From NCBI GenBank assembly GCA_964627095.1, contig CAZVKH010000001.1:8451-72450 (forward strand): 64,000 nucleotides of DNA, in the 5' to 3' direction. The position numbers and the translations under genes were made by a program. Shown here piece after piece: positions 4,056 to 61,291 of this stretch. Under the pieces are notes generated by a model, which did not search any database, was not told the origin of the DNA, and was given only the letters and a program-made list of their open reading frames with translations. The stretch's first letter is position 1. Each line of letters starts with the position of its first letter. This DNA is from an uncultured Candidatus Saccharibacteria bacterium. GTDB taxonomy: Bacteria; Patescibacteriota; Saccharimonadia; Saccharimonadales; JAUPVS01.

Positions 4056-5894
4056 ATGAAAAAACTTATCCACTATTTCAAGACTTACAAACACTTGGGC
4101 ATCGTCATCCTAGCCATAATTATGGCCGGAGCACTCGACCTAGGTGGCTACGAACGCTATGCCAACATTGTTTTAGGCGTAACCGCTTCGTTATCGGTTA
4201 TTCCATTACTCCTAGGCATGGTTCAAGACTTACGGGACGGCCAGTACGGTGTTGATATCCTTGCCGCCACCGCCATCATTTCTTCGGTGGCTCTGGGTGA
4301 ATACTGGGCCGGTATTGTTGTCGTATTAATGTTAACTGGTGGTGAATCGCTCGAAGATTACGCCGAACACCGGGCTAAGACCGAACTCGATGCCTTGCTC
4401 AGCCGAGCACCAAAGAAAGCTCACATTCTAAAAGGCAATAAGGTTACTGATGTGCTGGCCAGCAAGGTTCAGACCAACGACAAGCTTATTATTAAGCCCG
4501 GTGAGTTGGTGCCAGTCGATGCCGTTGTCATCGAAGGTCATGCCAGTCTTGACGAATCTAGCCTAACCGGTGAAAGCTTGCCGGTCGAAAAACACGCTGG
4601 CGATGAGCTACTCAGTGGTTCGGTTAACCTGGATGGCGTTCTGACCGTTAAAGCACTGCGACCGGCCGCCGACAGTCAGTACGAACAAATCATTAAGCTG
4701 GTGCGCGGTGCAGCCAGTAACCAATCACCATTTGTACGCCTGGCCGATAAATATAGTATTCCCTTCACGATTGTTGCCTACACCATCGCTATTAGCGTCT
4801 GGGTGGCTTCAGGTGACCCAATTAGATTTTTGCAAGTAATTATTGTCGCCACCCCTTGCCCACTATTACTAGCGGCGCCAATCGCATTAATATCCGGAAT
4901 GAGCCGAGCAGCGCGTCACGGTATTATAATTAAAACTGGCTCGGCCTTAGAAAAACTGGCTCAAGTAAAAACTATTGCCCTCGACAAAACCGGTACGTTA
5001 ACGGTAGGTAAGCCAGTTGTTGGTTCGATCAAGACTTTCAATAAACATAGTCAAAATAGTGTCCTGTCAGCAGCGGCCAGCCTTGAACAGGATTCAAACC
5101 ACATTTTAGCCAAGGCCGTTGTTGCCAAAGCCAACCAGGCAAACATTAAGACCTCTAAGGTAAAGAGCCTGCGTGAAGAAGCTGGTTACGGGTTAAGCGG
5201 CCTGGTTAACCGACAGCCTGTTTTAGTTGGCAATGCCTCACTCTTGCTTAAGCACGACGTTGACCTACCCAAGAAACTCCAAGACATGGCGGCCACAACC
5301 GCCTTTGTCGCCATAGACGGCGTCCTGGCTGGTACAATTGAATTTACCGATGAAGTCCGCCCGGAGTCTAAGTCAACGCTTCAGAGGCTCCGTGATGCCG
5401 GTGTACAGCACATTCTTATGATCACCGGCGATAACGTTGCAAGCGCCAAAGCAATTGCCAAAAAAGTTGGCATAAAAGATGTTCGAGCCAACTGCTTACC
5501 AGCCGACAAATTAACTGCTGTCGAAAATATTACCAACCGACCAGTTGCTTTTGTGGGTGATGGCGTTAACGACGCACCAGTTCTGACAGCCTCGGATGTT
5601 GGCATTGCTCTGGGTGCACGTGGCTCAGCGGCGGCCAGTGAATCAGCTGATGTAGTAATTATGCTCGACGACTTTGGTCGAGTCGCCACATCTGTAGAAA
5701 TCGCCAAGCGCACCTTCTTTATTGCTAAGCAAAGTATCCTGATTGGCATTTTTATTAGCGTCGGCTTAATGTTAATTTTTGCCACCGGTAAATTTAAGCC
5801 TATTTATGGTGCTGCTCTGCAAGAAGTCGTTGACGTGGCGGTTATCTTTAATGCCTTACGTGCCCACGGTTCTTGGCGCAAAAAAACTAGCTAG
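4056..5894 (+). CDS. P-type cation-transporting ATPase (P1B-like, no N-terminal metal-binding domain); the table ORF begins at TTG 4038
   Basis: DKTGTLT phosphorylation motif, GDGVNDAP hinge, TGES actuator motif and a membrane PCP(L) motif. TATACT lies 8 nt upstream of the ATG at 4056. Confidence 0.85.
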   Translation: MKKLIHYFKTYKHLGIVILAIIMAGALDLGGYERYANIVLGVTASLSVIPLLLGMVQDLRDGQYGVDILAATAIISSVALGEYWAGIVVVLMLTGGESLEDYAEHRAKTELDALLSRAPKKAHILKGNKVTDVLASKVQTNDKLIIKPGELVPVDAVVIEGHASLDESSLTGESLPVEKHAGDELLSGSVNLDGVLTVKALRPAADSQYEQIIKLVRGAASNQSPFVRLADKYSIPFTIVAYTIAISVWVASGDPIRFLQVIIVATPCPLLLAAPIALISGMSRAARHGIIIKTGSALEKLAQVKTIALDKTGTLTVGKPVVGSIKTFNKHSQNSVLSAAASLEQDSNHILAKAVVAKANQANIKTSKVKSLREEAGYGLSGLVNRQPVLVGNASLLLKHDVDLPKKLQDMAATTAFVAIDGVLAGTIEFTDEVRPESKSTLQRLRDAGVQHILMITGDNVASAKAIAKKVGIKDVRANCLPADKLTAVENITNRPVAFVGDGVNDAPVLTASDVGIALGARGSAAASESADVVIMLDDFGRVATSVEIAKRTFFIAKQSILIGIFISVGLMLIFATGKFKPIYGAALQEVVDVAVIFNALRAHGSWRKKTS

Positions 5895-8234: not shown

Positions 8235-8723
8235 ATGATTTATATACAACACACATTCAAGATGTTTATGGGCAAAGTTTCGGCCTCTATTGTGGTGTTT
8301 TTGTTTGTTGCTGGGATGGTTCTTACGCCGGCTTCTGCTTTGGCAGCCACTCCCGACTATAGTTGCGGGGCTTACGGTGGCAACGACTATAACAGTAACT
8401 GTCCAACCGACCCTAGTACCCCTAGCTCAAGTAGCAGTTCCTCTAGCAGCTCGACTGGCAGTAGTTCTAGCGACGGAGCGGCGGCCGACACGCCGACAAC
8501 TTCGGATACTACAACTACAACCGACGACAGCACCGCTATCGATACAAACGACAAAAGTTCTTCTACCACCAAGACAGCTGCCGAAGAAGAAGCTGGTACG
8601 TCTAATAGCAGCCGCTGGCTTTTGTTCGGCTTCTCGCTCTTTCTGCTCCTGCTAGCTCTATGGCTGATCTTCTTCTTGCTCAAGCGCCGCAAGCGCCAGC
8701 AAGAAGACAAACCAATGTTCTAG
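8235..8723 (+). CDS. secreted Ser/Thr-rich low-complexity protein with C-terminal TM anchor and basic tail
   Basis: Signal peptide (MFMGKVSASIVVFLFVAGMVLTPASALA), poly-Ser/Thr tract, and C-terminal WLLFGFSLFLLLLALWLIFFLLKRRKRQQ. No LPXTG motif. Confidence 0.6.
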   Translation: MIYIQHTFKMFMGKVSASIVVFLFVAGMVLTPASALAATPDYSCGAYGGNDYNSNCPTDPSTPSSSSSSSSSSTGSSSSDGAAADTPTTSDTTTTTDDSTAIDTNDKSSSTTKTAAEEEAGTSNSSRWLLFGFSLFLLLLALWLIFFLLKRRKRQQEDKPMF

Positions 8724-8992
8724 ACGGTCGGCTGGCCGGACGTGAGCTGAGGCTGTTCAACGATTCTATCTATGCCTAGGTCCGGCATCATGTACGATAG
8801 TTCGTCTCGTGCAGTCGGTGGTAGATCTGGGCTAACTTGGGCCACAACCGCTAGGCCATCGTCGCTACGGTCGACGACAACTCTTACAGCACTAGATATA
8901 GCAGGCATTAGATCCCAAAGATCACACTCAGCTGTAACACGGGCTTGCTGGAAGGCCTCATACTCTTGATTAGTGATTCTTCGTTTTGACAT
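8720..8992 (-). CDS. hypothetical 90-aa protein, leaderless transcript
   Basis: An ATG at 8992 sits 7 nt after a TAAGAT -10 box, downstream of the CTCATGCTTGCAT element. No homology recognised. Confidence 0.5.
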   Translation of the reverse strand: MSKRRITNQEYEAFQQARVTAECDLWDLMPAISSAVRVVVDRSDDGLAVVAQVSPDLPPTARDELSYMMPDLGIDRIVEQPQLTSGQPTV

Positions 8993-8999
8993 ACCAAAA

Positions 9000-9035
9000 A
9001 TCTTACAGCTACTCTGTTAGATATGCAAGCATGAG
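9000..9035 (-). promoter_or_regulatory. promoter: CTCATGCTTGCAT (extended -35) -17 nt- TAAGAT -7 nt- ATG
   Basis: Direct reading of the minus strand. It is one of three copies of the same 12-mer, each positioned identically relative to a start codon. Confidence 0.55.
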
Positions 9036-9061
9036 CGAAATATGTTTTAAGATGTCTGGGC

Positions 9062-9508
9062 TTAGTCGAGTGCTCGGGCTTGCTGGATCTGTTGCATGAG
9101 GTGACATTTGTCGCCTCCCTCCTCAAAAATTTCACACGCCACCGGGCGCTCTTCGTAAATTCCGCAGTGCTCCCAGCCGTCTTGATCGGTTTCAAGATAC
9201 TTGCAGTCATTCAGCAATACGTACCGACCAAGATTTGCCGCCAATGGTTCGGTTGGTCGCTCAGGGTCAACATAGTAAGTTTTCATACCTGTTTCGGGGT
9301 CCCATTCAAGACCACGCGGATAGGGTGCATCCGGGCGAGCCTTTGGCGATGGCAAGGGAACCGTCAGAAACTTGTTACCCGGTCGAGTCATAAGGGCGAC
9401 TTCTTGAAATGTCAGATCGAATATTTCGTTAGCCCGGCAGCAAGCCGCTTGACACTCATTGCAGTCGTCAACTGGTTCAGATGAAATTTGGATTGGAATT
9501 CTGGACAT
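9062..9508 (-). CDS. YkgJ/UPF0153-family Cys-cluster protein (putative Fe-S or zinc-binding)
   Basis: The CNECQAACC motif (CxxCxxxCC) plus further Cys/His residues. Leaderless start after AATAAT. Confidence 0.6.
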   Translation of the reverse strand: MSRIPIQISSEPVDDCNECQAACCRANEIFDLTFQEVALMTRPGNKFLTVPLPSPKARPDAPYPRGLEWDPETGMKTYYVDPERPTEPLAANLGRYVLLNDCKYLETDQDGWEHCGIYEERPVACEIFEEGGDKCHLMQQIQQARALD

Positions 9509-9516
9509 ATTCTACG

Positions 9517-9552
9517 ATTATTGAGCCATCTACGGTCGTTTGCAAGCATGAG
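9517..9552 (-). promoter_or_regulatory. promoter: CTCATGCTTGCAA -17 nt- AATAAT -8 nt- ATG (YkgJ-like gene)
   Basis: Direct reading. Second copy of the 12-mer. Confidence 0.55.
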
Positions 9553-9689
9553 AGAATTGGAAGCGACTGCCTGGCGGCACATTTCGTCGCGGGCTCGGTG
9601 CCAGCACCTGCGCGCGCTCCTCATGAGCGCACCTTCGACTACTGTCTGCTGCGCAGCCAAGTCGAAGAACCGGCGTCTTGCTCACTGGC

Positions 9690-9720
9690 AAAGAAAAAGA
9701 GCCATCCTTATGGATGACTC
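9690..9720 (-). terminator. intrinsic terminator after tRNA-Pro (9-bp stem GAGUCAUCC/GGAUGGCUC, loop AUAA, then a U-run)
   Basis: On the minus strand the hairpin is followed by UCUUUUUCUUU immediately 3' of the tRNA. Confidence 0.7.
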
Positions 9721-9728
9721 ATTTTCTT

Positions 9729-9805
9729 TGGTCGGGGTGAAAGGACTCGAACCTTCGACCTCACGGTCCCAAACCGCGCGCGCTAGCCAACTGCGCCACA
9801 CCCCG
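9729..9805 (-). tRNA. tRNA-Pro (TGG)
   Basis: Acceptor CGGGGUG/CACCCCG, anticodon arm CGCGG-uuUGGga-CCGUG, T-arm GGUUCGAGUCC and an encoded CCA. Confidence 0.85.
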
Positions 9806-11614: not shown

Positions 11615-11795
11615 GGAATTCATCCTATTCATCAAATATCCCTACACAGCCGGCGTTATTGCCACCGTCTGGCTTGGTAGCGCCGTTTTAATGGCAATTA
11701 ACCATGACTTGCCAATTGTAGCCATGGTTATCATTAATATGGCTGTCAGCGTCGTTATCGCAGCCGTTGGCTTTACCGGCAGTAAAGAAGTTTAG
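11607..11795 (+). CDS. small two-TM membrane protein
   Basis: Hydrophobic 62-aa ORF overlapping the kinase stop by 8 nt. Confidence 0.4.
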   Translation: MLKEFILFIKYPYTAGVIATVWLGSAVLMAINHDLPIVAMVIINMAVSVVIAAVGFTGSKEV

Positions 11796-12595
11796 TCCTC
11801 TATAATCTTTTGAACCGGTGCAACGCTCAATGCTAAGCCGGTACTGGCATCAACCTCGACCACTAAGCCGTTCAACTGGAACGGCCCTTTGGTTTCGAGC
11901 TCATTGCGAGTCCGCAAACCATCACGCCAGCGCGGTATGACTGATTCTAGTGCTATGCCCAGGCTGCCGTGTAAAACTCCACACATACCAACATCACTCT
12001 GGTGGGCCGTTCCCTTGGGCAGAATCATGGCATCGGCCGTTGGAACATGCCAGTGGTCACCAACTACCAAGCTGACTCGGCCGTCTAAGTAATAGCCAAT
12101 TATGACTTTTTCACTACTAAAGTCACCGTGAAAATTAATAATCGTGGCTACTTTTTTATGGTCGGCTGTTTCTTCTAATATTTGGTCGATAACTTTTAAT
12201 GGGTTGTCGCTGGGCTTGTCGGCATCTTTGCCAACAATTGTACCCAGCAAACTAACCAGTAATATGTCACCGTGAGCTGTTTTTAAAAACTTGTAGCGTT
12301 GCCCCGGTGTGCCTTCGGGGTAGTTGGCCGGACGCACGACTGGTTGCTGTGGATCACTAAGATGATCAAATATGTCGTCGTTGTATAGCGTCCAGTTGCC
12401 CCCGGTAAAGCCATCGACACCAGCATGGCGCAAGCGCTCGTAATCGGTTTTATTCAAGCCCTTACCTTCAGTAACATTTTCGGCCTGCGCTATAACTACA
12501 TCAATTGAGTGTTCATGTTTAAGGTCGGTTAGTAGTTTTTCAACGGTCTTTATACCTGGCTCACCCATAATATCGCCGAGATAGAGTATCTTCAT
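11792..12595 (-). CDS. ymdB: YmdB-family metallophosphoesterase (2',3'-cyclic-nucleotide phosphodiesterase, TIGR00282-like)
   Basis: MKILYLGDIMGEPG N-terminal motif and a calcineurin-like metallophosphatase His/Asp pattern. It follows rny as in Bacillus. Confidence 0.8.
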   Translation of the reverse strand: MKILYLGDIMGEPGIKTVEKLLTDLKHEHSIDVVIAQAENVTEGKGLNKTDYERLRHAGVDGFTGGNWTLYNDDIFDHLSDPQQPVVRPANYPEGTPGQRYKFLKTAHGDILLVSLLGTIVGKDADKPSDNPLKVIDQILEETADHKKVATIINFHGDFSSEKVIIGYYLDGRVSLVVGDHWHVPTADAMILPKGTAHQSDVGMCGVLHGSLGIALESVIPRWRDGLRTRNELETKGPFQLNGLVVEVDASTGLALSVAPVQKIIED

Positions 12596-13205: not shown

Positions 13206-14720
13206 CTACTTAGCGAACTCGACGGCGCGGGTCTCGCGGATTACGTTAACTTTAATGGTACCAGGGTACTGCATACTAGCTTCGATCTTGGTTGCAATGT
13301 CACGGGCTAACTTAATGGCGCTTAGGTCATCGATGTCTTTAGGTCGCACAAACACACGGACTTCACGGCCGGCGCTAATGGCGTAAGATTTCTCGATACC
13401 CTTAAAGCTGTTGGCAACATTCTCGAGATCTTTCATGCGCTCCACAAAGTTCTCGGCGCTAATATTGCGGGCACCGGGTCGTGAGGCGCTGACAGCGTCA
13501 ACCACGCGCACAATCAAAGCTTCGGTAGTGGTGGCTTCAACGTCATCGTGATGCTGTTCGGCAGCCAAGGCGACTGCTTCGGGCGCACCATATTTGCGTA
13601 GCATCTCACCGCTAATGTGATGGTGCTTGCCTTCCATCTTGTGCGTCATGGCCTTGCCTAGGTCATGCACCAATGCAGCGTACTTAGTGGTCTTAACGTC
13701 AGCGTTAAGTTCTTCGGCAATAATACCGGCCATATGCGCCATCTCGGTGCTGTGCTTAAGAACATTCTGGCCGTAACTGGTACGGAATTTAAGTTCACCA
13801 AGGAGCTCCAGAATCTCGCGCGGGATACCTATTACACCAACTTCGCGAGCGGCATCTTCGCCAGCGCGCACCACGTCTTTATGAACATTCTTCTGAGCCT
13901 TCTCGACAACTTCTTCGATACGGCCAGGGTGCACCCGACCATCTTTTAGGAGCATTTCTAAGGCTTGGCGGGCAACTTCGCGACGAACCGGGTCAAAGCT
14001 ACTAAGCACAACGTAACCAGGTGTATCATCAACCATAATGTCGACGCCAGTGGCGCGCTGCAAGGCTTGGATGTTGCGACCTTCCTTACCTATAATGCGG
14101 CCTTTCATTTCTTCATCTTCTAGTTTTAAGCTAGTAATGGTTCGCTCGGCAGTTACTTCGCTGGCCATGCGTTCCATGGCTTGAGCGATAATGCTACCGG
14201 CCTGCTCTTCGGCATCAACCTGGGCTTCCTTCTGCATTTTAGAAATCAAACCGATCAGGTCACCCTTAATATCACGCTCGGTCATTTGCATCAGCTTCTC
14301 GGCCGCTTCGGTCTTGGTCAGCTTGGCAATCTTTTCGAGTTTTTCTTGTTGCTTAACGCGCACCGCTCGAATTTCGTTTTTCAGCTCTTCGGCTTCGTCC
14401 TCGGCCTTACGCAAGTTTTCGTTGCGCTTGTCGAGGGCGTCGAGTTTTTTGTCTAAGGCTTCTTCGCGGTCGAGTAGGCGTTGTTCAATTTGCTTGATTT
14501 CGCGACGGCGTGTCTGTTCATCTTTGCGCGCCTCTTCGGCCACAGCGGCAGCTTCTTCGCGTGCCTTAGCCAGTTCTTTGTTGGCCTCTTTTTTAGCTTG
14601 CGCCAGCTCTTTAGAAGCGGCTTCTTTACTTGCACCAACTCTTTTTTGCGTCACAGCAGTGCTGGCACCAAAGCCTGCGGCTAATCCAGCCACAGCCAAT
14701 ACGATGGTAATTGGATCCAT
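13206..14720 (-). CDS. rny: ribonuclease Y
   Basis: N-terminal TM helix, a long coiled coil, a KH domain (GRIIGKEGRNIQALQRATG) and an HD domain (HSTEMAHMAGIIAEE...VHDLGK). Confidence 0.9.
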   Translation of the reverse strand: MDPITIVLAVAGLAAGFGASTAVTQKRVGASKEAASKELAQAKKEANKELAKAREEAAAVAEEARKDEQTRRREIKQIEQRLLDREEALDKKLDALDKRNENLRKAEDEAEELKNEIRAVRVKQQEKLEKIAKLTKTEAAEKLMQMTERDIKGDLIGLISKMQKEAQVDAEEQAGSIIAQAMERMASEVTAERTITSLKLEDEEMKGRIIGKEGRNIQALQRATGVDIMVDDTPGYVVLSSFDPVRREVARQALEMLLKDGRVHPGRIEEVVEKAQKNVHKDVVRAGEDAAREVGVIGIPREILELLGELKFRTSYGQNVLKHSTEMAHMAGIIAEELNADVKTTKYAALVHDLGKAMTHKMEGKHHHISGEMLRKYGAPEAVALAAEQHHDDVEATTTEALIVRVVDAVSASRPGARNISAENFVERMKDLENVANSFKGIEKSYAISAGREVRVFVRPKDIDDLSAIKLARDIATKIEASMQYPGTIKVNVIRETRAVEFAK

Positions 14721-14912
14721 GGTTATTCCTTTCTGATATGTGTTTGCAGATCAACGCTGATAATCGTTGGCCGGCAATCACTATCACTTCTTTAGCACGG
14801 CTTCTCGAACGCGGAAATCTGAAAATTCAATTAAAAATTACTTGAGGTGCGGATTTTGTTCCCAAAACTCTTAAAATCCTAAGCCTACTATACCCCCCAG
14901 TGACGGCTTTGT

Positions 14913-15307: not shown

Positions 15308-15766
15308 CTAGCTTAACCCTTCTGTCAAATAAGATAATTCATCAGCACATTTAATCTTTAGCTCACGACCATCGTCGTCGGTTTGGGTAATAGCAACTGT
15401 CAGACGTTTTTCTGGCAGTACATGCTGAACAACATCACCCCATTCAATCACAACTACACAATTCTTGTCAGTCAACACATCGGCTAGCTCATGCTCGATC
15501 AGGCCGGCTTGGGGCAGGCGGTAAAAGTCAAAGTGGTGCATCTCCTTGGAACCACTCTTGTAAACCTTGCTAATCGTAAAGGTTGGACTAGCCACCCGGT
15601 CGGGACTACCAAATCCTCTTGCTAAACCGCGCGTAAAGGTTGTCTTGCCTCCACCCAAGTCGCTAACTAGCTCAATTACCTCACCACCACGTAGATTGCC
15701 GCCGATTATCTCGGCAATATTTTCGGTTTGGTTAGCGTCAGCCGTCTTAATAACTTTCATGCTCAT
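15308..15766 (-). CDS. tsaE: tRNA threonylcarbamoyladenosine biosynthesis ATPase TsaE
   Basis: P-loop LVSDLGGGKTTFTRGLARGFG followed by SPTF, matching the YjeE family. Confidence 0.85.
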   Translation of the reverse strand: MSMKVIKTADANQTENIAEIIGGNLRGGEVIELVSDLGGGKTTFTRGLARGFGSPDRVASPTFTISKVYKSGSKEMHHFDFYRLPQAGLIEHELADVLTDKNCVVVIEWGDVVQHVLPEKRLTVAITQTDDDGRELKIKCADELSYLTEGLS

Positions 15767-15823
15767 TCATGGTAGCGTGATTTACCAACCGTCGGCAAGC
15801 TTATGCGCTATAATAGGGTAACT

Positions 15824-20304: not shown

Positions 20305-20886
20305 TTATTTTCCGGTTAAGGCTCGTTTAATGCGATCCTCAGTTGGGATGTCTTGCGGGATGCCAGCTAGGGCAGTGGCAGCATCGGGAGCAGTGTAACC
20401 CAAGGCCATCAAAGCCTCGACAGCTTCGTCCTGCACCAAACTTGCATCCGACTGTAATATACCCAAACTATCTAAATCAACGCCAGCCAAACCAACTTTA
20501 TCTTTTAGCTCAACGACAACTCGTTCGGCGACACGTTTTCCAACACCGTTAGCTTGCTGAATGAACTTGGTATCGCCACTTGCTAGTGCTCGCCTCACCT
20601 CACCCACTGTGCCAATACTTAACATGTTAAGTGCCATTCGTGGACCAATGCCATTGACTGAAAGGAGTAGTTCAAACAAATTTTTAGTTTCTAGGCTGCA
20701 GAAACCGTACAGGTCGTAACTGCTCTCTCTTATGTGTTCGTAGATGTAGAGCTTGGTCACCTGCTCTGGCGTCAGCTTTCCAAAGTCTTCAGCCGTTACT
20801 AGCAGCCCATAGCCAACCCCGGCGACGTTTAGAACAACGACGTCTTTCAGTTTTTCGGATACAGTCCCCTCTAACGTTGCAATCAT
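20305..20886 (-). CDS. ruvA: Holliday junction DNA-binding protein RuvA; start set at MIATLEG rather than the extended ORF start 20961
   Basis: MIATLEGTV...VAGVGYGL matches the RuvA N-terminus and there is a tandem HhH. The extended ORF would overlap the ruvC 3' end. Confidence 0.85.
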
Positions 20887-27573: not shown

Positions 27574-27606
27574 GCGCCCATCATAGCATGAGCGGGTTGG
27601 TTTTGC

Positions 27607-33725: not shown

Positions 33726-34207
33726 GTCTGACTCCCCTTTTGCATTGTTACCTTTACCATGGCATGGCGAATAACCGAGTCATTCAAGCAATAACCCGAC
33801 TGTAGCTCTTCGCTAACCACCTCTACCGCACCCTCGCCCAAACCATCGCCTTCGTCCATACTGACGGCTTCGTGAACGGTTGGGTCAAAGACTTCACCAA
33901 CCGTTTTAATGCGCTGTACACCCATTTGCTGTAAGGTGGACTCGAACTGCTTAACAACACCTTGGACGCCTTGTACGTAGCTGTTGTCGGCCAATTCAGC
34001 GGGCACATGCTTAAGGGCTCGTTCAAAGTTATCAATTACCGGCAATAAATCTTCGATGACCTGCACCTTAATATGGTTTTGCAAGTTAGCGACTTGGTCA
34101 CCATGCTGGCGGCGAACATTAATTACGTCGGCGCGTTCGCGCTGCAGGGCTTCGGTTAGTTCGGCAATCTGCTGTTGTAACTCAGCAACGGTTGGTTTTT
34201 TAGGCAT
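33722..34207 (-). CDS. grpE: nucleotide exchange factor GrpE
   Basis: Long N-terminal helix (ELQQQIAELTEALQRERADVINVRR) and a GrpE C-terminal beta domain. Confidence 0.85.
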   Translation of the reverse strand: MPKKPTVAELQQQIAELTEALQRERADVINVRRQHGDQVANLQNHIKVQVIEDLLPVIDNFERALKHVPAELADNSYVQGVQGVVKQFESTLQQMGVQRIKTVGEVFDPTVHEAVSMDEGDGLGEGAVEVVSEELQSGYCLNDSVIRHAMVKVTMQKGSQT

Positions 34208-34904
34208 ACAGCATCTCCTCTAAGGTGTTACCAGCGTGTTCCACCAAGCGCATAACGTCACGATATTGCTGGCGGGTAGGTCCCAGTACGCCAATATAGC
34301 TATGGTCGCTATACGGACTCCGGAACTTACTAATGATCAACGAGCAACGCGCACTGCGTCCAATTGGGTTTTCGCTACCAATATAGACGTTAAGCGGCTG
34401 GTTGGGGGCGGCTTCTTTCAGCCACGGCTCCAGGTTGTCCAGCAGCCTCGCAACTTGCTGGACCTGTTGACCATTAATAAACTCCGGCTGACCAAATAAG
34501 TTCGACAAACCACTCATGTATAACTGATCACCAATCGTGGCTATCCCCAAGTTATGAGTTAGCTCAACTAGGGTGTCAACAGTGTTACGAATCGCTCGTT
34601 CCGGTAGGCCGCTGCTAGTAGCTCGGGTTTCCAGGGCTTTAGAGGCTCGTTCGGGTGTTTTGTCGGGGTTGTCGTTGGCCAGAGCGTTTACGTAAACGCG
34701 GTAACCTTTGTCGGTCGGTACACGGCCGGCACTGGTGTGGGGCTGTGAAATGTAGCCCATGCGCTCTAGTTCGGCCATTTCGGCGCGGATAGTGGCCGAA
34801 GAAACACCAAAAACTTTGGCCATTAAACTAGAACCTACCGGACTGGCAACCTCGGCATACTGTTCCACAATAGCGGCTAGTATTTTCTGCTGTCGTTCTG
34901 TCAT
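34200..34904 (-). CDS. hrcA: heat-inducible transcription repressor HrcA (short form)
   Basis: MTERQQKILAAIVEQYAEVASPVGSSLMAKVFGVSSATIRAEMAELERMGYISQPHTSAGRVPTDKGYRVYV matches the HrcA winged-helix N-terminus. A CIRCE element lies directly upstream. Confidence 0.85.
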   Translation of the reverse strand: MTERQQKILAAIVEQYAEVASPVGSSLMAKVFGVSSATIRAEMAELERMGYISQPHTSAGRVPTDKGYRVYVNALANDNPDKTPERASKALETRATSSGLPERAIRNTVDTLVELTHNLGIATIGDQLYMSGLSNLFGQPEFINGQQVQQVARLLDNLEPWLKEAAPNQPLNVYIGSENPIGRSARCSLIISKFRSPYSDHSYIGVLGPTRQQYRDVMRLVEHAGNTLEEMLYA

Positions 34905-34925: not shown

Positions 34926-34952
34926 TTAGCACTCACAAGTCAAGAGTGCTAA
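34926..34952. promoter_or_regulatory. CIRCE operator TTAGCACTC-N9-GAGTGCTAA overlapping the hrcA promoter (TTGACT-17-TATCAT)
   Basis: Perfect match to the CIRCE consensus, read directly. The -35 TTGACT sits inside the CIRCE spacer. Confidence 0.9.
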
Positions 34953-48585: not shown

Positions 48586-49128
48586 CTACTTAAGCTTATT
48601 AAGATGGCGCAAGCCTAATAGCACCAACAGCCCCATAACACCGGCTCCAATAAAGGCGGCCACAGCGGCGTAGTAGGCGATCATACCAAAGGTCCAGTAA
48701 GCGTAGCCGTCACCCAACAAAATTCCACGCAGGGTTTCACCTTGGAACAAGCTCTGCTTTTGAGCTTGCAACTTAGCGTTAGTAGGGTCCTTCATAGCTT
48801 CGGCACTAACTTCGGCGTAGGTTTTACCACCAGCAATATCATCAAGATGCTTACCAATGTAGTCATTGGCGTATGCCTTAGCCTTAGGTCCGTCATCCAC
48901 CTGTTGTCCAGCGTACTTTTGCAAAGTTGGGTACTTGGCCGGATCCAGTGCTGGGCTACCCTTGGCCGGGAAGTAAATTTTTTGAGCCGAAAGTTCGTTG
49001 CGCACGTTGGTAGTAGCGAAGTTGTAGGCGTAGAAAGATAGACTACCGACGGCCAGTAGTACGGCTGTCATAGCAGCGCCCAGTAGTATAAATACTTTAT
49101 CAATTGTTTTACGATCTGATTTTGCCAT
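48586..49128 (-). CDS. hypothetical membrane protein (N- and C-terminal TM helices)
   Basis: ORF with hydrophobic termini. No homology recognised. Confidence 0.45.
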   Translation of the reverse strand: MAKSDRKTIDKVFILLGAAMTAVLLAVGSLSFYAYNFATTNVRNELSAQKIYFPAKGSPALDPAKYPTLQKYAGQQVDDGPKAKAYANDYIGKHLDDIAGGKTYAEVSAEAMKDPTNAKLQAQKQSLFQGETLRGILLGDGYAYWTFGMIAYYAAVAAFIGAGVMGLLVLLGLRHLNKLK

Positions 49129-49188
49129 GTTTATTCCTTTTTACTGCCCTACCTTAGCATTCTTAGCGCTTACGTTTTGTGATTTGAA

Positions 49189-49398
49189 TCACAGTTCGGG
49201 CTCGGGCGTATCCTTCCTATGCAGTATCAAGTAGAGTATTGGCAATAAGCCGGCGGTATTTAGAACTAGCATACACATGAACCAGCCAGTTTGATAACGC
49301 CGGGCTGACCGCCACAGACCGATTCCTTTCCATACGACATCCCAAAGTGCCACTGCAACTATTACCATTGCCCAGCCTAGCGATAATGAATTGTCCAT
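49189..49398 (-). CDS. PLDc_N-family small membrane protein
   Basis: W-rich first helix and an LLPILYLILHRK C-terminal motif typical of PLD-nuclease N-terminal-domain proteins. Confidence 0.6.
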   Translation of the reverse strand: MDNSLSLGWAMVIVAVALWDVVWKGIGLWRSARRYQTGWFMCMLVLNTAGLLPILYLILHRKDTPEPEL

Positions 49399-49422: not shown

Positions 49423-49815
49423 TTATACAATCCGGGCTAACTTGCGCAGCTCTTTGCGGTGTGAAAAACGAGGATTGTCGGTAATAACTTCGCGGGTCGG
49501 GATTATCCGCCCGCGCAACTTGTGGTCGTTCGGCAAACCACTCAGTAACAAATAGCCCTGCCAGTAACGGCCGCCAACTTCTAGTTCCAGGTGGGTCAAA
49601 TCAGAGGCATAGGCTTCATCTTCGACTTCGTACAATCGATAGCGCCCCAAGCCAAGCACACAGTCTGACTTATGAGCGTTATGTGAAGTTACTAAAATTT
49701 CACCGATTCCCTTAGCGTCAACCCAGGCAAATACCTTTTTGTCTAAATATAAAACTTTGGTGTGATGCTGGGTTTCGATAAGCTTATAGATGCCGTTAGC
49801 GCGTAACCGTATCAT
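49423..49815 (-). CDS. hypothetical protein, PH-like; paralogous to the next gene
   Basis: Shares the YLDKK segment (KVLYLDKKVFAWV versus RIIYLDKKPLFV) with the 49796..50320 product. Confidence 0.4.
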   Translation of the reverse strand: MIRLRANGIYKLIETQHHTKVLYLDKKVFAWVDAKGIGEILVTSHNAHKSDCVLGLGRYRLYEVEDEAYASDLTHLELEVGGRYWQGYLLLSGLPNDHKLRGRIIPTREVITDNPRFSHRKELRKLARIV

Positions 49816-50320
49816 GATGTCCCTCGTGGTTTAACTGCTCGAGGCAACGTAGTTCGATGTATTCCGAGAAGTTGTTGGCACAACGCTCATTAAAAGTTCG
49901 GATCTTAAAGTCTTTAACACGGGTATGTAAGACAACCGTACTACCCCAACCAGCATGCGAGTAATTAATACCGCTCACAACGTCATAGGTAACCTCATCT
50001 TCGTTGACGAACAGTGGTTTTTTATCAAGGTAGATGATTCGCCTATCGGTCGCTACCAGGATCACAAAACCATCTAAGTTCTGGCCATAAACAAGGCCGC
50101 CAATATGCTCGTCGGCATGAACAATACTGGGCAAGTAACGGCTGGCGCCGTGTAGCAAACCAACCCGCGTCATACCTAGATCTTTAAGCTCTTGTATAAT
50201 CCGCCGACGGTGGTTCGGCATTTCTTTATTGCTGACATGTAGGTTGCGGTTATCCTTGGTGGCTAAAGCTGTGTACATAATGGCCGTCCTCCTGCTTACA
50301 GTAAAGCAGTTGCCAAGCAC
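49796..50320 (-). CDS. hypothetical protein with bacterial PH-like domain
   Basis: A beta-rich segment GFVILVATDRRIIYLDKKPLFVNEDEV. It overlaps the downstream gene by 20 nt. Confidence 0.4.
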   Translation of the reverse strand: MLGNCFTVSRRTAIMYTALATKDNRNLHVSNKEMPNHRRRIIQELKDLGMTRVGLLHGASRYLPSIVHADEHIGGLVYGQNLDGFVILVATDRRIIYLDKKPLFVNEDEVTYDVVSGINYSHAGWGSTVVLHTRVKDFKIRTFNERCANNFSEYIELRCLEQLNHEGHHDTVTR

Positions 50321-50360
50321 CGTTACAGTGACACTAGTCAGTTGTTGCGTGTGATACCAA

Positions 50361-51005
50361 TCACAGCTTGAGTTTTTGCTCGATGGCCGGCAAATCTGTC
50401 ACGATAATTGCCTGGCTATTCACCTCTACCAAGTTAAGGTCTTTGGCTTTGTGCAATTCTCGGCTGACGGTTTCGCGTGATAAACCAGTGCGCGCCGCCA
50501 GGTCACCTTCTTTAAGTGGTAATTGGTAGGTGCTAGTTTTGACTTTTAGGCCAAGCCGATGGCACTCAATAACCAGCTCGTACAGCAAGCGCGTTTGGGC
50601 GCTGCCCGACATCAACTGAACTAGACGCCCCAGTAGACCATCGGTGCCTTGATATAAACGCGCCAGTAGGTCGTACATAACATCCGGGTTGTCCTTTACA
50701 AACTTAACTGCAGCCGTGGCCGGGACAATATGTAGTTCGGTGTCTATTTCGGTTTTAAAGAAATACTTGTTGGGTGTTTTGTTTATAGCCCAAGACATTG
50801 GGAAAAAAGCTGGAGGTTTAAAAACATTAACAATTACTTCTTCGCCGCGGTAAGAAACATCGTACTGGCGAACCCGGCCTTTGGTGACATAAAAAATATG
50901 CTCCGGCTCTTCACCGGCAAACACCAAAATCTGGCCTTTTGGGTAGGTGCGTTGCGGGTAGGTTCTAAAAAACTGGTCAATTTTACTGGAAACTGCGGAA
51001 GTCAT
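50361..51005 (-). CDS. Crp/Fnr-family transcriptional regulator
   Basis: N-terminal cNMP-binding beta-roll and a C-terminal HTH (RETVSRELHKAKDLNLV). Confidence 0.8.
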   Translation of the reverse strand: MTSAVSSKIDQFFRTYPQRTYPKGQILVFAGEEPEHIFYVTKGRVRQYDVSYRGEEVIVNVFKPPAFFPMSWAINKTPNKYFFKTEIDTELHIVPATAAVKFVKDNPDVMYDLLARLYQGTDGLLGRLVQLMSGSAQTRLLYELVIECHRLGLKVKTSTYQLPLKEGDLAARTGLSRETVSRELHKAKDLNLVEVNSQAIIVTDLPAIEQKLKL

Positions 51006-51038: not shown

Positions 51039-51854
51039 TTAGGCTGTCTGGCAATCAGGAGTGGCTGTTGCCAACCAGGCAGCTAATGACGTATTAAACG
51101 CTTCTTGCTTGATAGCCTTAGTATCTTCGCTGTAATTATCGAAGTCTGTTGGCTGTACTATGGCAAAAGCACGATTAATATACGCCGACCGGTCTGCAAG
51201 ATAACGCTTAACCGGAACATACTCGTCAGACCTCTCCATGAGAGCCACCACGTGGCCGCCGACTACGTCAGCAACAAGCCAGCGAAGCCCCAGCTCACAG
51301 TCGGTTGCCGTGTCGTTAACAACATGCTCGGAAGCCCGTATCGCTGTTCTTAGGTAGCCGACCCGCTCAACTGTGTTGAAGATTCTCCCCAATTTAGTGT
51401 GGTCATCAAAGACCACTTCTTCGGCGGCCTCAAAGATTAAGTCGGCCAAATGAGGCTGTTGTTGGGCGACATCTTCTATAATCTTGCGCAAATGGCCACG
51501 CTCTTGCGCCTCGTCTTGGATTGTTTTGTTGCTGTAAGTAATATCCCCAACAATCACTTCGGCCCAGTCATGGATAATGGCAGCAGCTTCTAGTACCTGC
51601 TCTTCGTGTGGCGTCATTAGCCCAGGCTGATCGCGACGCAAATTACGGTTCATAGCCCGGGCAATTCCTCGCGTCAGCGGCATGTGCAAAAGGTTGTTAA
51701 CGTCTGCGCCAAGTAGCTCTTGCCAACGTTCGTTAGTTACCCCTTCGGGCATGTAACGTTCGTAACGAACACGGGTCGCCAGCTCCTGTCCAAGATCAGT
51801 GGCGGCAAAGGCGTTGTGGATGTCCATGATGTTGGGTTGAATTTCGGTGCTCAT
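51039..51854 (-). CDS. HD-domain metal-dependent phosphohydrolase; start at MSTEIQ (51854)
   Basis: HD motif region AIIHDWAEVIVGDI. The table N-terminal extension covers its own promoter. Confidence 0.65.
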   Translation of the reverse strand: MSTEIQPNIMDIHNAFAATDLGQELATRVRYERYMPEGVTNERWQELLGADVNNLLHMPLTRGIARAMNRNLRRDQPGLMTPHEEQVLEAAAIIHDWAEVIVGDITYSNKTIQDEAQERGHLRKIIEDVAQQQPHLADLIFEAAEEVVFDDHTKLGRIFNTVERVGYLRTAIRASEHVVNDTATDCELGLRWLVADVVGGHVVALMERSDEYVPVKRYLADRSAYINRAFAIVQPTDFDNYSEDTKAIKQEAFNTSLAAWLATATPDCQTA

Positions 51855-51863
51855 ACTACTTTC

Positions 51864-51899
51864 ATAGTCCTGCTTGGCTATTAATATTGCAAGCATGAG
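51864..51899 (-). promoter_or_regulatory. promoter: CTCATGCTTGCAA -17 nt- GACTAT -9 nt- ATG (HD-domain/crp operon)
   Basis: Direct reading. Third copy of the 12-mer. Confidence 0.5.
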
Positions 51900-52407
51900 C
51901 ATAATAGTTTTAGGCTATACTTATAGGGTGAATAAAAAACTTTTGTTGGCCATTGCCGTAATAATCGTCGTCATAGGTGCTGGTGTTATTTACTTGCTAA
52001 CCAGTAGTGAGCCAGAAAAAGCCATGGAAACAGTTACTGATCAGTCGACAACCACGTCTACTAGCCCGACCACGCCCCCTCCAGTTACTGACAATTCAAA
52101 ACCCGGCGCCTACATTGACTACACCAGCTCGGCAATTTCTCAGACTTCGGGCACAAAACTACTGTTCTTTCATGCGCCGTGGTGCCCCCAATGTCGCGAT
52201 CTCGAAGACAGCATTAAGCAGGATGGCGTGCCAGACAGTGTGACAATTATTAAGGTCGACTACGACAGCAACCAGGCCCTCCGCCAAAAGTATGGCGTAA
52301 CCCTACAGACGACCGTGGTTAAAATTGATGATAACGGTAACTTGATAGATAAGTTTGTCGCCTATCAAGAGCCTAGCCTGGCGGCTGTAAAGCAACGACT
52401 GTTGTAA
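51895..52407 (+). CDS. membrane-anchored thioredoxin-fold protein (WCPQC), ResA/TlpA-like; start uncertain (first ATG 51895; the table ORF begins at TTG 51874)
   Basis: N-terminal TM helix, and FFHAPWCPQC CxxC active site in a thioredoxin fold. Confidence 0.7.
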   Translation: MSIIVLGYTYRVNKKLLLAIAVIIVVIGAGVIYLLTSSEPEKAMETVTDQSTTTSTSPTTPPPVTDNSKPGAYIDYTSSAISQTSGTKLLFFHAPWCPQCRDLEDSIKQDGVPDSVTIIKVDYDSNQALRQKYGVTLQTTVVKIDDNGNLIDKFVAYQEPSLAAVKQRLL

Positions 52408-54024: not shown

Positions 54025-54726
54025 ATGACCGATATGCTCGCTCCTTCAGCCGAAGCCGAAAAATTGCCAACAGATGACCCGACAACCATACTAGCACTTG
54101 AAGCACGCGACTTATTACTCGCCGCCAGCCAAGCCGAACCGGGCAGCCCGGATGAGGTAGCCGCCCTAGAGGAAGCCAATAGTCGCTTTAGCGAGCTGGT
54201 TAGCGAAACCCAGGAATTCCTTACCAAATTTGCTCTGAGCCGCCCCCACCCCAGGCATTTTGATGTGCAAGAAGTAGTCCAGGAAACCTACGCCCGAGCC
54301 TATAAGGGTTTACATAATTTTAGGGGTGACGCCAAGTTTTCTACGTGGCTATTTTACGTTTTGCGCAGCTGTACTGATAACTACTGGAGACGCGAGGCAC
54401 GTCACAACAATCAGCCCCTACCCGAAGAAGACGGTTCAGATCCATCCTTGGTTGGTAGTATTGCCGTGGTGTCATCATTAGATACTGGCGAGGTCGACAG
54501 CTTTTTGGACTACAGTAGCCTTTCGCCGGAACTAGAAGCAATGCTGGCCACTTTAAGTCCCAAGCAACAACAAGCTATTCGTATGCATGACGTAATGGGA
54601 CAAACCACTAAAGAATGTGCCGCGCAACTAGGTGTTAGTGAAATTAGTTTTAAGATGAACGTACACCGGGCTCGCCATAACCTACGCCGCGAATTCCCCG
54701 ATGCCAGAAACTGGTTAGAAGAATAA
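54025..54726 (+). CDS. ECF-type RNA polymerase sigma-70-family factor
   Basis: Region 2 (YARAYKGLHNFRGDAKFSTWLFYVLRS) and region 4 HTH (LSPKQQQAIRMHDVMGQTTKECAAQLGVSEISFK). Confidence 0.75.
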   Translation: MTDMLAPSAEAEKLPTDDPTTILALEARDLLLAASQAEPGSPDEVAALEEANSRFSELVSETQEFLTKFALSRPHPRHFDVQEVVQETYARAYKGLHNFRGDAKFSTWLFYVLRSCTDNYWRREARHNNQPLPEEDGSDPSLVGSIAVVSSLDTGEVDSFLDYSSLSPELEAMLATLSPKQQQAIRMHDVMGQTTKECAAQLGVSEISFKMNVHRARHNLRREFPDARNWLEE

Positions 54727-57287: not shown

Positions 57288-57358
57288 AATATCATGCTTG
57301 AGCTTACACCGTTTAACCTCTATACTAACTAGCAATAGGTAAAAGAGAGGGTTAACGC

Positions 57359-60379: not shown

Positions 60380-61291
60380 CTCGTCAACATTGTTAGCGGC
60401 CATAAAACGCTCGCGGAGTTCTTTGGCGCCATCAAAGCCGTTAATATAAACCTTACAGAATTTGTTAAGGGTATGAACTTTTCTTTCATTATTTTGCCAG
60501 GTTTGGGCGAACAGCTCGATATGGCGCTGGAACAACTCCATCTTTTGCTGCTTGGTCATGTCTACCCACGGACTTTGCTGAGCAAACACATAGGGGTCTT
60601 CAAAAATACCACGGCCGATCATAATTCCATCCAGCTTATACTCCTCTGCCTTTGCCAAGGCCTCTTGGCGCGTTAGCACATCGCCATTACCAACTAGTAA
60701 GGTGGCGGGGGAGAGCTGGTCACGCAACTCGCGGATCTGGTTGATAACATCCCAGTGAACCGGCACCTTAGACATTTCTTTAGTGGTCCGACCATGTATA
60801 GTTAACATGTTAAGTTTTAAGCTTAGCAGAAATTCTGGCCAGGTAATGTCGACTTCATTAAAGCCAATCCGGGTTTTTACCGAAACGGGGAAGTCTTCCC
60901 CGGCGGCTTTTTGGACAGCCCGGATGATCTCCCCTGCCGCTTCCCTGTTATTAATTAAGGCGCTGCAGCAGCCATTCTTAACGACAGTCTTGTCGGGACA
61001 CCCCATATTTATGTCCACCCCAGCAAAGCCCATTTCTTTAAGTTCCAGAGTAGTTTTGTAATAATTATCGGGGTTTTTACCCCATAACTGGGCAATAATT
61101 GGCGTTTCTTGGGCAGTAAACTGCAACTTGGGGAGTAGCTTTTCCCGACCCGGACTTTGCAAGCCATCGACGTTAACAAACTCGGTAAAATAGAGGTCGG
61201 GTGGAGCGGTACTAGCCACTACCTGACGGAACACGCTGTCGGTGACATCGTCCATGGGGGCTAAAACTAGGAAGGGCTGCGGTAACTGCAT
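60323..61291 (-). CDS. dus: tRNA-dihydrouridine synthase
   Basis: LAPMDDVTDSVFR N-terminal motif, TIM-barrel FMN-binding pattern and a catalytic Cys region (NMGCP). Confidence 0.85.
   Translation of the reverse strand: MQLPQPFLVLAPMDDVTDSVFRQVVASTAPPDLYFTEFVNVDGLQSPGREKLLPKLQFTAQETPIIAQLWGKNPDNYYKTTLELKEMGFAGVDINMGCPDKTVVKNGCCSALINNREAAGEIIRAVQKAAGEDFPVSVKTRIGFNEVDITWPEFLLSLKLNMLTIHGRTTKEMSKVPVHWDVINQIRELRDQLSPATLLVGNGDVLTRQEALAKAEEYKLDGIMIGRGIFEDPYVFAQQSPWVDMTKQQKMELFQRHIELFAQTWQNNERKVHTLNKFCKVYINGFDGAKELRERFMAANNVDELRDTLLAVMAVTPLGHLD

Follow-up and report, generated by a model that had tools for sequence, protein, structure and literature searches.

The window analysed here is a 64,000-nt stretch of a compact Saccharibacteria (Saccharimonadales) genome with about 48% G+C. 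Three genes on its minus strand, encoding a 90-aa hypothetical protein, a YkgJ-like protein and an HD-domain protein, are each preceded at a short distance by an exact copy of the 12-nt sequence CTCATGCTTGCA. We consider it likely that this 12-mer forms the centre of a promoter element of 14-15 bp, (T)GCTCATGCTTGCAW or (T)GCTCATGC-TTGCAW (W, A or T), used by a sigma-70-family holoenzyme in Saccharibacteria. The ABC1-kinase gene that adjoins the first two copies has 58-94% identical counterparts only in Saccharibacteria, Saccharimonadales and Patescibacteria metagenome-assembled genomes, with long synteny. To our knowledge, almost nothing is known about transcription initiation and its regulation in bacteria of the candidate phyla radiation, and the literature searched contained no account of Saccharibacteria promoters or of this motif.

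All three copies share one layout, in which the 12-mer is followed by W, 17 nt, a hexamer of the form nAnnAT and an ATG 7-9 nt further on. Promoter 1 (8993..9036, minus strand) carries the element GCTCATGCTTGCAT, with the 12-mer at 9024-9035, the -35 hexamer TTGCAT at 9023-9028, a 17-nt spacer and the -10 hexamer TAAGAT at 9000-9005, 7 nt ahead of the ATG at 8992. Promoter 2 (9509..9552, minus strand) carries (T)CTCATGCTTGCAA, with the 12-mer at 9541-9552, TTGCAA at 9540-9545, a 17-nt spacer and AATAAT at 9517-9522, 8 nt ahead of the ATG at 9508. Promoter 3 (51855..51900, minus strand) carries TGCTCATGCTTGCAA, with the 12-mer at 51888-51899, TTGCAA at 51887-51892, a 17-nt spacer and GACTAT at 51864-51869, 9 nt ahead of the ATG at 51854. 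If the -10 hexamer is set at -12 to -7, the 14-mer extends from about -44 to -31. The three promoters thus described have a weak -10, no TGn extension and a good -35 with an upstream extension. The initial annotation had reported this anatomy of TTGCA(A/T), 17 nt, a -10 hexamer and an ATG after 7-9 nt, which is correct base by base, and its view that the 12-mer is a promoter element which includes the -35 hexamer and reaches beyond it agrees with the evidence below.

Three identical 12-mers at fixed spacing had also been judged to lie beyond chance, and this holds: the three copies compare with a mean of 0.02 in 100 dinucleotide shuffles of the window, none of which (0/100) reached three. The only other 12-mers present in triplicate are words from tRNA T-arms, one palindrome and one coding word. 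Likeness among the three sites reaches only about 4 nt further upstream (sites 1 and 2), and the flanks and spacers are otherwise unrelated, so the copies are not duplicated segments. When up to two mismatches were allowed, the window gave 7 matches against 6 expected, that is, no halo of near-copies.

The genes behind the three promoters are only partly characterised by similarity. The 90-aa gene (8720..8992, minus strand; apparently leaderless start at 8992) encodes a protein with no Pfam or NCBIfam match, and an orthologue that is 60% identical lies behind the same promoter in the relative locus L003. The YkgJ-like CxxCxxCC gene (9062..9508, minus strand; 148 aa) has an apparently leaderless start at 9508; its exact 148-aa product is present in public gene calls, and four homologues were found. 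The HD-domain gene (51039..51854, minus strand; 271 aa), the first gene of a probable HD-Crp operon, has a putative leaderless start at 51854, a position supported by a 271-aa database protein of identical sequence and by the aligned N-terminal ends of 18 homologues. An in-frame ATG at 51902 lies inside the motif and is called as the start in the relative P0006 (287 aa); this 287-aa start is a miscall that reads through the motif. A Crp/Fnr-family regulator gene (50361..51005, minus strand) follows 33 nt downstream of the HD gene with AGGAGG ahead of it and is probably co-transcribed from promoter 3. This HD-Crp gene order was found in L013 and L014 only. A gene for an extracytoplasmic function (ECF)-type sigma factor (54025-54726) lies 2 kb from site 3.

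These gene identities stand as first assigned, with profile matches that are clear for the Crp/Fnr regulator and weak for the others: the CxxCxxCC protein scores 22.6 bits against Pfam PF03692 (cut-off 23) and the HD protein 18-19 bits (cut-off 22). Neither PDB nor NCBIfam pointed to a function for the HD, YkgJ-like or 90-aa protein.

The copy at site 3 overlaps a second promoter as well, lying across the -35 zone of a divergent thioredoxin-like/CcdA operon (51888-51936, plus-strand view). The start of this operon is probably the GTG at 51928 rather than the TTG at 51874, with a -10 TATACT at 51916-51921. The divergent layout is identical in L013, and a protein bound to the element could touch both promoters.

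Relatives of the three loci show how the element evolves. In L003, where the YkgJ-like protein is 86% identical, the 13 element bases CTCATGCTTGCAA and the AATAAT of promoter 2 are unchanged, and 8 of the 17 spacer bases differ. This promoter feeds an extra Shine-Dalgarno-led 136-aa gene (leader AAGGAG) ahead of ykgJ in L003, which indicates that the element is not bound to leaderless starts. Promoter 1 is nearly identical in L003 and offers little divergence to judge by. Site 3 is kept with the same spacing in L013 and L014, whose HD proteins are 77% identical to that of the window. Beyond these, the element upstream of HD orthologues decays in a graded manner with falling protein identity: L015 (54%) has GCTCATGCTTGTT ahead of a Shine-Dalgarno-led gene, L017 (54%) has CCTTATCCTTGCA-N17-GAAGAT-N6-ATG, L153 (51%) has GCTTATGGTTGCC-N17-GATGAT-N6-ATG, L155 (49%) has GCTTGTGCTTGCC-N16-TAAAAT-N8-ATG, and in L157 (46%) nothing recognisable is left. 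The L153 lineage holds three sites, all of which read GCTTATGnTTG, and such a coordinated change points to drift together with a trans-acting reader. Upstream of the YkgJ orthologue in L004 (58%), TTGCAA-N17-TACATT-N7-ATG is kept and CTCATGC is not. A 'GC' located 3-4 nt ahead of the -10, common to the window copies and L003, was considered as part of the element and rejected, as it is not conserved in the wider set.

The element recurs well beyond these orthologues. In 277 kb of Saccharibacteria DNA, 10 copies of the 10-mer CTCATGCTTG were counted where 0.53 would be expected. Every copy (10/10) is intergenic and aimed at a downstream gene, which is either leaderless or Shine-Dalgarno-led, and 9/10 have a hexamer with A at its second and T at its sixth position (A2/T6) 16-18 nt past the -35, the exception being the copy at L015 7284. 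When all 8-mers in the 70 nt ahead of predicted genes were counted without bias, CTCATGCT, CATGCTTG and GCTCATGC proved to be enriched about 10-fold, on par with GCTATAAT. Locus L015 alone holds four exact-core copies and two near-copies in 13.5 kb, and the genes behind them are an HD gene, another of the HD_3/YfbR-like type, a DUF3048 gene and a gene of 148 aa. In L017, a single exact copy is accompanied by several near-copies, and L005 has one copy ahead of an operon of a methyltransferase and a YkgJ-like gene. The small neighbours of the motif clusters in L015, L017 and L003 gave no match in Pfam.

A wider scan of metagenomes with the pattern TGCTCATGCTTGCA-N19-ANNNT returned at least 120 loci, with 113 distinct sites among the matches listed. 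About 35 of these 113 lie in promoter context, here defined as an A or T after GCA, an intergenic position and either a leaderless ATG 6-10 nt past the -10 or a Shine-Dalgarno sequence and ATG within about 60 nt. Among the matches listed, A or T follows GCA in 31/37 intergenic-like sites, and the upstream flank of sites in promoter context is A/T-rich. Leaderless starts were called at a rate of 18.6% overall, compared with 9.9% for random A2/T6 hexamers in the same metagenome loci, and predicted starts coincide with public gene calls in 8/10 cases. Ten metagenome loci encode proteins that are 40-80% identical to proteins of the Saccharibacteria loci, and nine of these ten sites are in promoter context; one downstream protein is named as an IMP cyclohydrolase of Candidatus Saccharimonadales. 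A scan of viral contigs gave 15 matches, which are mostly chance-like and argue against a phage promoter family.

The downstream genes are diverse. By sequence reading they include purD-, IMP cyclohydrolase-, folP- and isocitrate/isopropylmalate-dehydrogenase-like genes, as well as genes for a short-chain dehydrogenase, a 316-aa group-1/2 sigma factor, a DUF3800-like protein and many small hypothetical proteins, with database or profile support for the cyclohydrolase, folP and the sigma factor only. When 51 downstream proteins were compared with one another by BLAST, all against all, similarity was confined to the HD family, the YkgJ pair and a single near-identical pair, and no small recurrent protein that could be an auto-regulated reader was found among them. 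The initial annotation had pictured a small regulon. Instead, the element recurs across Saccharibacteria before functionally unrelated genes and, as judged from its predicted promoter contexts, is a lineage-wide promoter class before many different genes rather than a small local regulon.

Some arrangements among these loci deserve mention in their own right. In L074 (~4100-4200) and L106 (~1080-1140 and ~2700-2790), element copies occur as inverted pairs about 30 nt apart, like divergent promoters, and precede paralogous genes with the common conserved leader GGTAATCGCAATTCAACT. In L080 (1572-1700), an exact intergenic copy with the -10 GATGAT lies upstream of the 316-aa group-1/2 sigma gene, which is followed by polA; auto-regulation or a sigma cascade is a possibility at this site.

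The ordinary promoters of the genome provide the background against which the element can be judged. Many window genes have a TATAAT-like box 6-10 nt ahead of the ATG, no Shine-Dalgarno sequence and no recognisable -35. These boxes are mostly preceded by TGC or nGC, that is, an extended -10 of the form TGnTATAAT. Among the tRNA genes, 7/8 have a TATAAT-like -10, several of them with TGn (a tRNA-Arg gene directly follows tRNA-Gly). The three genes behind the element were initially described as leaderless, and they do look so, with 7, 8 and 9 nt from -10 to ATG and no Shine-Dalgarno sequence. The tie between the element and leaderless transcripts does not hold: about two dozen window genes look leaderless without it, and elsewhere Shine-Dalgarno-led genes carry it. 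Leaderless expression, as read from these boxes, is a general habit of the organism and not special to the three genes.

The element (GCTCATGC) is not present in the promoters of tRNA genes, tuf, rpsJ and rplJ; for example, the tuf promoter reads TTACAA-N17-TAAAAT and the rplJ promoter TTGACT-N17-TATACT. Since housekeeping promoters are either TGnTATAAT boxes without a -35 or have a plain TTGACT or TTACAA -35, and lack GCTCATGC, the element promoters form a separate -35-dependent class. Further differences separate the two groups. The TGn extension is absent from element promoters, and the -35 part of the element varies much less than housekeeping -35 boxes do. The first -10 position of element promoters shows no T bias (G 31%, T 31%, C 26%, A 11%), and among strong boxes T occupies this position in 9/20 element promoters versus 15/16 housekeeping promoters (Fisher p = 0.0035). 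The earlier suggestion that the conserved bases are a recognition site for a specific factor is supported by these comparisons, as strong promoters in general do not carry the element.

Taken together, the consensus is W-n-n-(T)GCTCATGC-TTGCAW, 17 (16-18) nt, n-A-T-A-A/C-T, with TTGCAW as the -35 box placed 17 (+/-1) bp upstream of an nATAAT-type -10. It has the features of sigma-70 promoters of group 1/2, namely a TTG -35, a spacing of 16-18 bp and an A2/T6 -10, and the hexamers are kept while the spacer drifts. A sigma-70-family RNA polymerase holoenzyme would read the element, and transcription would start 6-9 nt past the -10, which for the three window copies means the ATG or a position adjoining it. 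There, we infer, leaderless mRNAs of the 90-aa gene, the YkgJ-like gene and the HD-Crp operon would be produced; elsewhere the same element would give rise to leadered mRNAs that contain a Shine-Dalgarno sequence. The 5' half, GCTCATGC (about -43 to -36), probably acts as an extra specificity determinant, and throughout the clade a conserved trans-acting factor would read the element and co-evolve with it. The register of the element and its orientation towards the -10 never change, which speaks for positive recognition rather than for an operator bound by a repressor, and the housekeeping-like -10 favours a sigma of group-1/2 type. Our best guess is such a sigma with extended -35 recognition, where the extension could reside in the sigma itself or in a partner (activator or adaptor) docked on its region 4. 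The sequences are compatible with three options that they do not separate: a primary sigma assisted by an activator or adaptor, a primary sigma that makes the extended contact by itself, and a secondary group-2-like sigma.

Several points weigh against this interpretation or narrow its reach. No reader protein was identified in the analysis, and the 13-14 invariant bases exceed the usual contacts of one sigma region 4 helix-turn-helix. The density of the element is very uneven, with no full copy in six syntenic 21-kb loci (L007-L012). The downstream genes have no functional theme and are compatible with regulated as well as constitutive use. Transcription starts and leaderless status are read from sequence. 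In the metagenome scan, sites were picked by the exact 14-mer with an A2/T6 hexamer and are uninformative on natural variability there; many other matches are chance occurrences inside long open reading frames of other organisms, and the taxonomy of most loci is unproven. The established range of the element is Saccharimonadales.

Comparison with known systems helps to place this putative class. Canonical sigma-70 (group 1/2) promoters, with their -35-dependent and extended -10 classes, share TTGnnn, a spacing of 17 +/-1 bp and nAnnnT with A2/T6. To these the element adds eight near-invariant, G+C-rich bases, GCTCATGC, directly upstream of the -35; it also differs in its first -10 position, which is not T-biased, and in the conservation of the block over a candidate phylum lineage. 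What appears to be new here is a -35-dependent class of sigma-70 type with an unusually long, sequence-specific upstream extension that is conserved lineage-wide. UP elements, which are bound by the alpha C-terminal domain, also lie directly upstream of the -35, and the DNA further upstream of the element is A/T-rich. However, UP elements are A/T tracts, whereas GCTCATGC is 62% G+C and sequence-specific.

A second resemblance is to the heat-shock sigma factor of Escherichia coli. The sigma-32 consensus is TCTCnCCCTTGAA-N13-17-CCCCATnT, with a CTTGAA -35, and serves chaperone and protease genes. Like the element, it has a -35 region of 13 nt in which CTC lies 5 nt before a CTTG core; when the two are aligned on CTTG, about 8/12 specified positions coincide, and the geometry is similar. 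In contrast to sigma-32 promoters, element promoters have no CCCC -10, dnaK, grpE, dnaJ and hrcA have no element, and no RpoH-like gene was seen. The resemblance may be taken as a lead rather than a test. The window does contain a perfect CIRCE at 34926-34952 (TTAGCACTC-N9-GAGTGCTAA) upstream of a gene read as hrcA (34200-34904), which is followed by genes read as grpE and dnaK, and by dnaJ (Pfam). Heat-shock control is probably of the HrcA/CIRCE type and not linked to the 12-mer.

A third resemblance is to factors that work through sigma region 4, such as class II activators, T4 MotA/AsiA (box ...TGCTT.A at -30) and mycobacterial PafBC (RecA-NDp motif). These systems, too, have a specific block that keeps a constant spacing to a normal -10, overlaps the -35 or takes its place, and serves a dispersed gene set. 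The element differs in keeping a good TTG -35 at 17 bp, and no homologous factor was identified here. Its TGCTT, which raised a T4 MotA box as a candidate, lies about 7 bp upstream of the MotA-box position, and this candidate was rejected for its wrong spacing. Sigma-54 (TGGCAC-N5-TTGCW), raised by the TTGCW of the element, was also rejected, since a correctly spaced GG element is lacking and the -10/ATG geometry misfits. A bolder form of the preferred interpretation, which we put forward only tentatively and hold to be somewhat improbable as it stands, is that a lineage-specific initiation factor reads the 13-14 bp -35 element GCTCATGCTTGCA, being either a long-specificity secondary sigma or a region-4 adaptor, and drives a dispersed regulon.

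Among the alternatives, a dedicated repressor survives best, although we regard it as unlikely. Here sigma-A would read TTGCAW and nATAAT, and a repressor bound to GCTCATGC(TTGCA) would occlude the -35 and keep dispersed genes off until a signal arrives. The housekeeping-like -35 and -10 are compatible with this, as is the overlap of the extra bases with the -35, a common position for repressors, and at site 3, where the element reaches over the -35 zone of the divergent thioredoxin/CcdA promoter as well, one bound protein could shut both. However, no copy of the element occupies another operator position (spacer, start site or downstream) or is reversed relative to the -10, and the element is asymmetric and short for a dimeric repressor. 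Its -35 part is, moreover, less variable than housekeeping -35 boxes, which suggests that the whole block is read as one positive element.

The initial annotation had named the ECF sigma factor and the Crp/Fnr regulator as candidate readers, and both are poor candidates. That the ECF-type sigma (54025-54726) takes the element as its -35 is very improbable. Its gene is encoded 2 kb from site 3, and ECF promoters are highly conserved and specific. Yet most ECF sigmas auto-regulate and use promoters with an AAC-core -35 and a G/C-rich, CGT-like -10, whereas the element goes with an nATAAT -10 with invariant A2/T6 and has no AAC/CGT signature, the region upstream of the ECF gene has no element, and the downstream gene set is broad and heterogeneous.

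We give hardly any credence to the idea that the Crp/Fnr regulator (50361-51005) recognises the 12-mer and governs a small regulon, its own operon among the targets. The regulator gene lies within the operon of promoter 3, auto-regulation is common in the Crp/Fnr family, and class II sites of this family (TGTGA-N6-TCACA or TTGAT-N4-ATCAA, at -41.5) overlap the -35 as the element does. Against this, the 12-mer has no dyad beyond TGC...GCA and is centred at about -37.5 instead of -41.5, and most lineages with the element ahead of an HD gene have no adjoining crp gene. Better candidate sites stand beside the crp gene, where two perfect TGTGA-N6-TCACA boxes (49178-49193 and 50350-50365) were found against 0.06 expected. 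Both are kept at orthologous places in L013 while their flanks diverge, and they are likely true Crp/Fnr sites. The boxes lie upstream of a 180-aa gene (48586-49128) and a bPH_3 gene (49796-50320).

Least credible of all is a repeat with no role in transcription (a word repeated by chance or recent duplication, a DNA-uptake sequence, or a site that marks a recombination or cassette boundary): although Saccharibacteria are naturally competent, sites 1 and 2 sit in a small accessory block by tRNA-Pro that is missing in relatives, and inverted pairs occur between paralogous genes in L074 and L106, every intergenic copy keeps a fixed spacing to the -10 and start codon and a single orientation relative to genes, the flanks are unrelated, the word is kept across genomes with 50% protein identity, and its density (3 copies in 64 kb, 10 in 277 kb; about 1 per 20-30 kb) is far from the ~1 per kb of uptake sequences.

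The surroundings of sites 1 and 2 have features of their own. Both sites lie in a block (8235-9600) that holds genes for a 162-aa Ser/Thr-rich membrane protein, the 90-aa protein and the YkgJ-like protein. In L007 and L009, this block is missing at the syntenic place, between the tatA/75-aa gene and tRNA-Pro/ABC1 kinase, which makes it a small accessory islet beside tRNA-Pro. A genome scan anchored on the ABC1 kinase reached seven Saccharibacteria loci, none of which (0/7) has the 12-mer, because the block with ykgJ and the 90-aa gene is missing there. The 176 nt between tRNA-Pro and site 2 (9553-9728, minus strand) are predicted to fold at -75.6 kcal/mol (z = -3.85), with a terminator-like hairpin followed by G+C-rich helices, and a 12-nt near-copy of part of the tRNA-Pro gene (9748-9759) occurs at 9628-9639. 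This segment may be a tRNA remnant or a small RNA; an Rfam search of the whole window found tRNAs only and nothing at 9553-9728.

Other sequences in the window resemble the element in part. At 57292..57326 (plus strand), TCATGCTTGAGC is followed by 17 nt and TATACT upstream of a Shine-Dalgarno-led 349-aa gene (start 57359), a partial relative recognised by reading the sequence. A weak relative at 15769..15806 (minus strand) consists of GCATAAGCTTGCC, 18 nt and TACCAT, with an ATG at 15760 and a 152-aa gene (15308-15766); its GC-N4-GCTTGC-N18-TACCAT is kept in the syntenic relatives L007-L011. The occurrence of CTCATGCT at 27585-27592 (minus strand) was rejected as an element copy, as it is fused to the -10 (CTCATGCTATGAT, 6 nt, ATG 27573) in a different register, and it is probably an ordinary TGCTATGAT extended -10.

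Two further features of the window stand out. The sequence AAGTGATAGTGAT (14777-14789, minus strand) lies about 65 nt upstream of a highly conserved 504-aa gene (13206-14720) and is conserved in every syntenic relative (L007-L012) against a varying background, which makes it a candidate for a leader or regulatory element. By its sequence, the 504-aa gene is probably RNase Y, and the neighbouring 267-aa gene (11792-12595) looks YmdB-like. A near-perfect palindrome, CTTAACATGTTAAG (ACTTAACATGTTAAGT in the first copy), occurs at 20617-20632 and 60801-60816, inside the coding regions of unrelated genes.

For Saccharibacteria, the element would provide a cis-regulatory handle for finding the trans-acting factor. 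It would define a computable set of genes that may be co-regulated, in epibionts with very few regulators, and improve the annotation of start codons and operons, as illustrated by the 271-aa HD start and the 287-aa miscall. The promoters are compact and portable, and could be of use in the emerging genetic systems for these bacteria. If the reader is the primary sigma alone, the finding would be a modest refinement of the promoter consensus of the lineage. If a lineage-specific factor reads the element, its regulon would be rich in accessory and uncharacterised genes, together with nucleotide, folate and sigma genes, and the factor would represent a global switch in epibiotic, genome-reduced bacteria.

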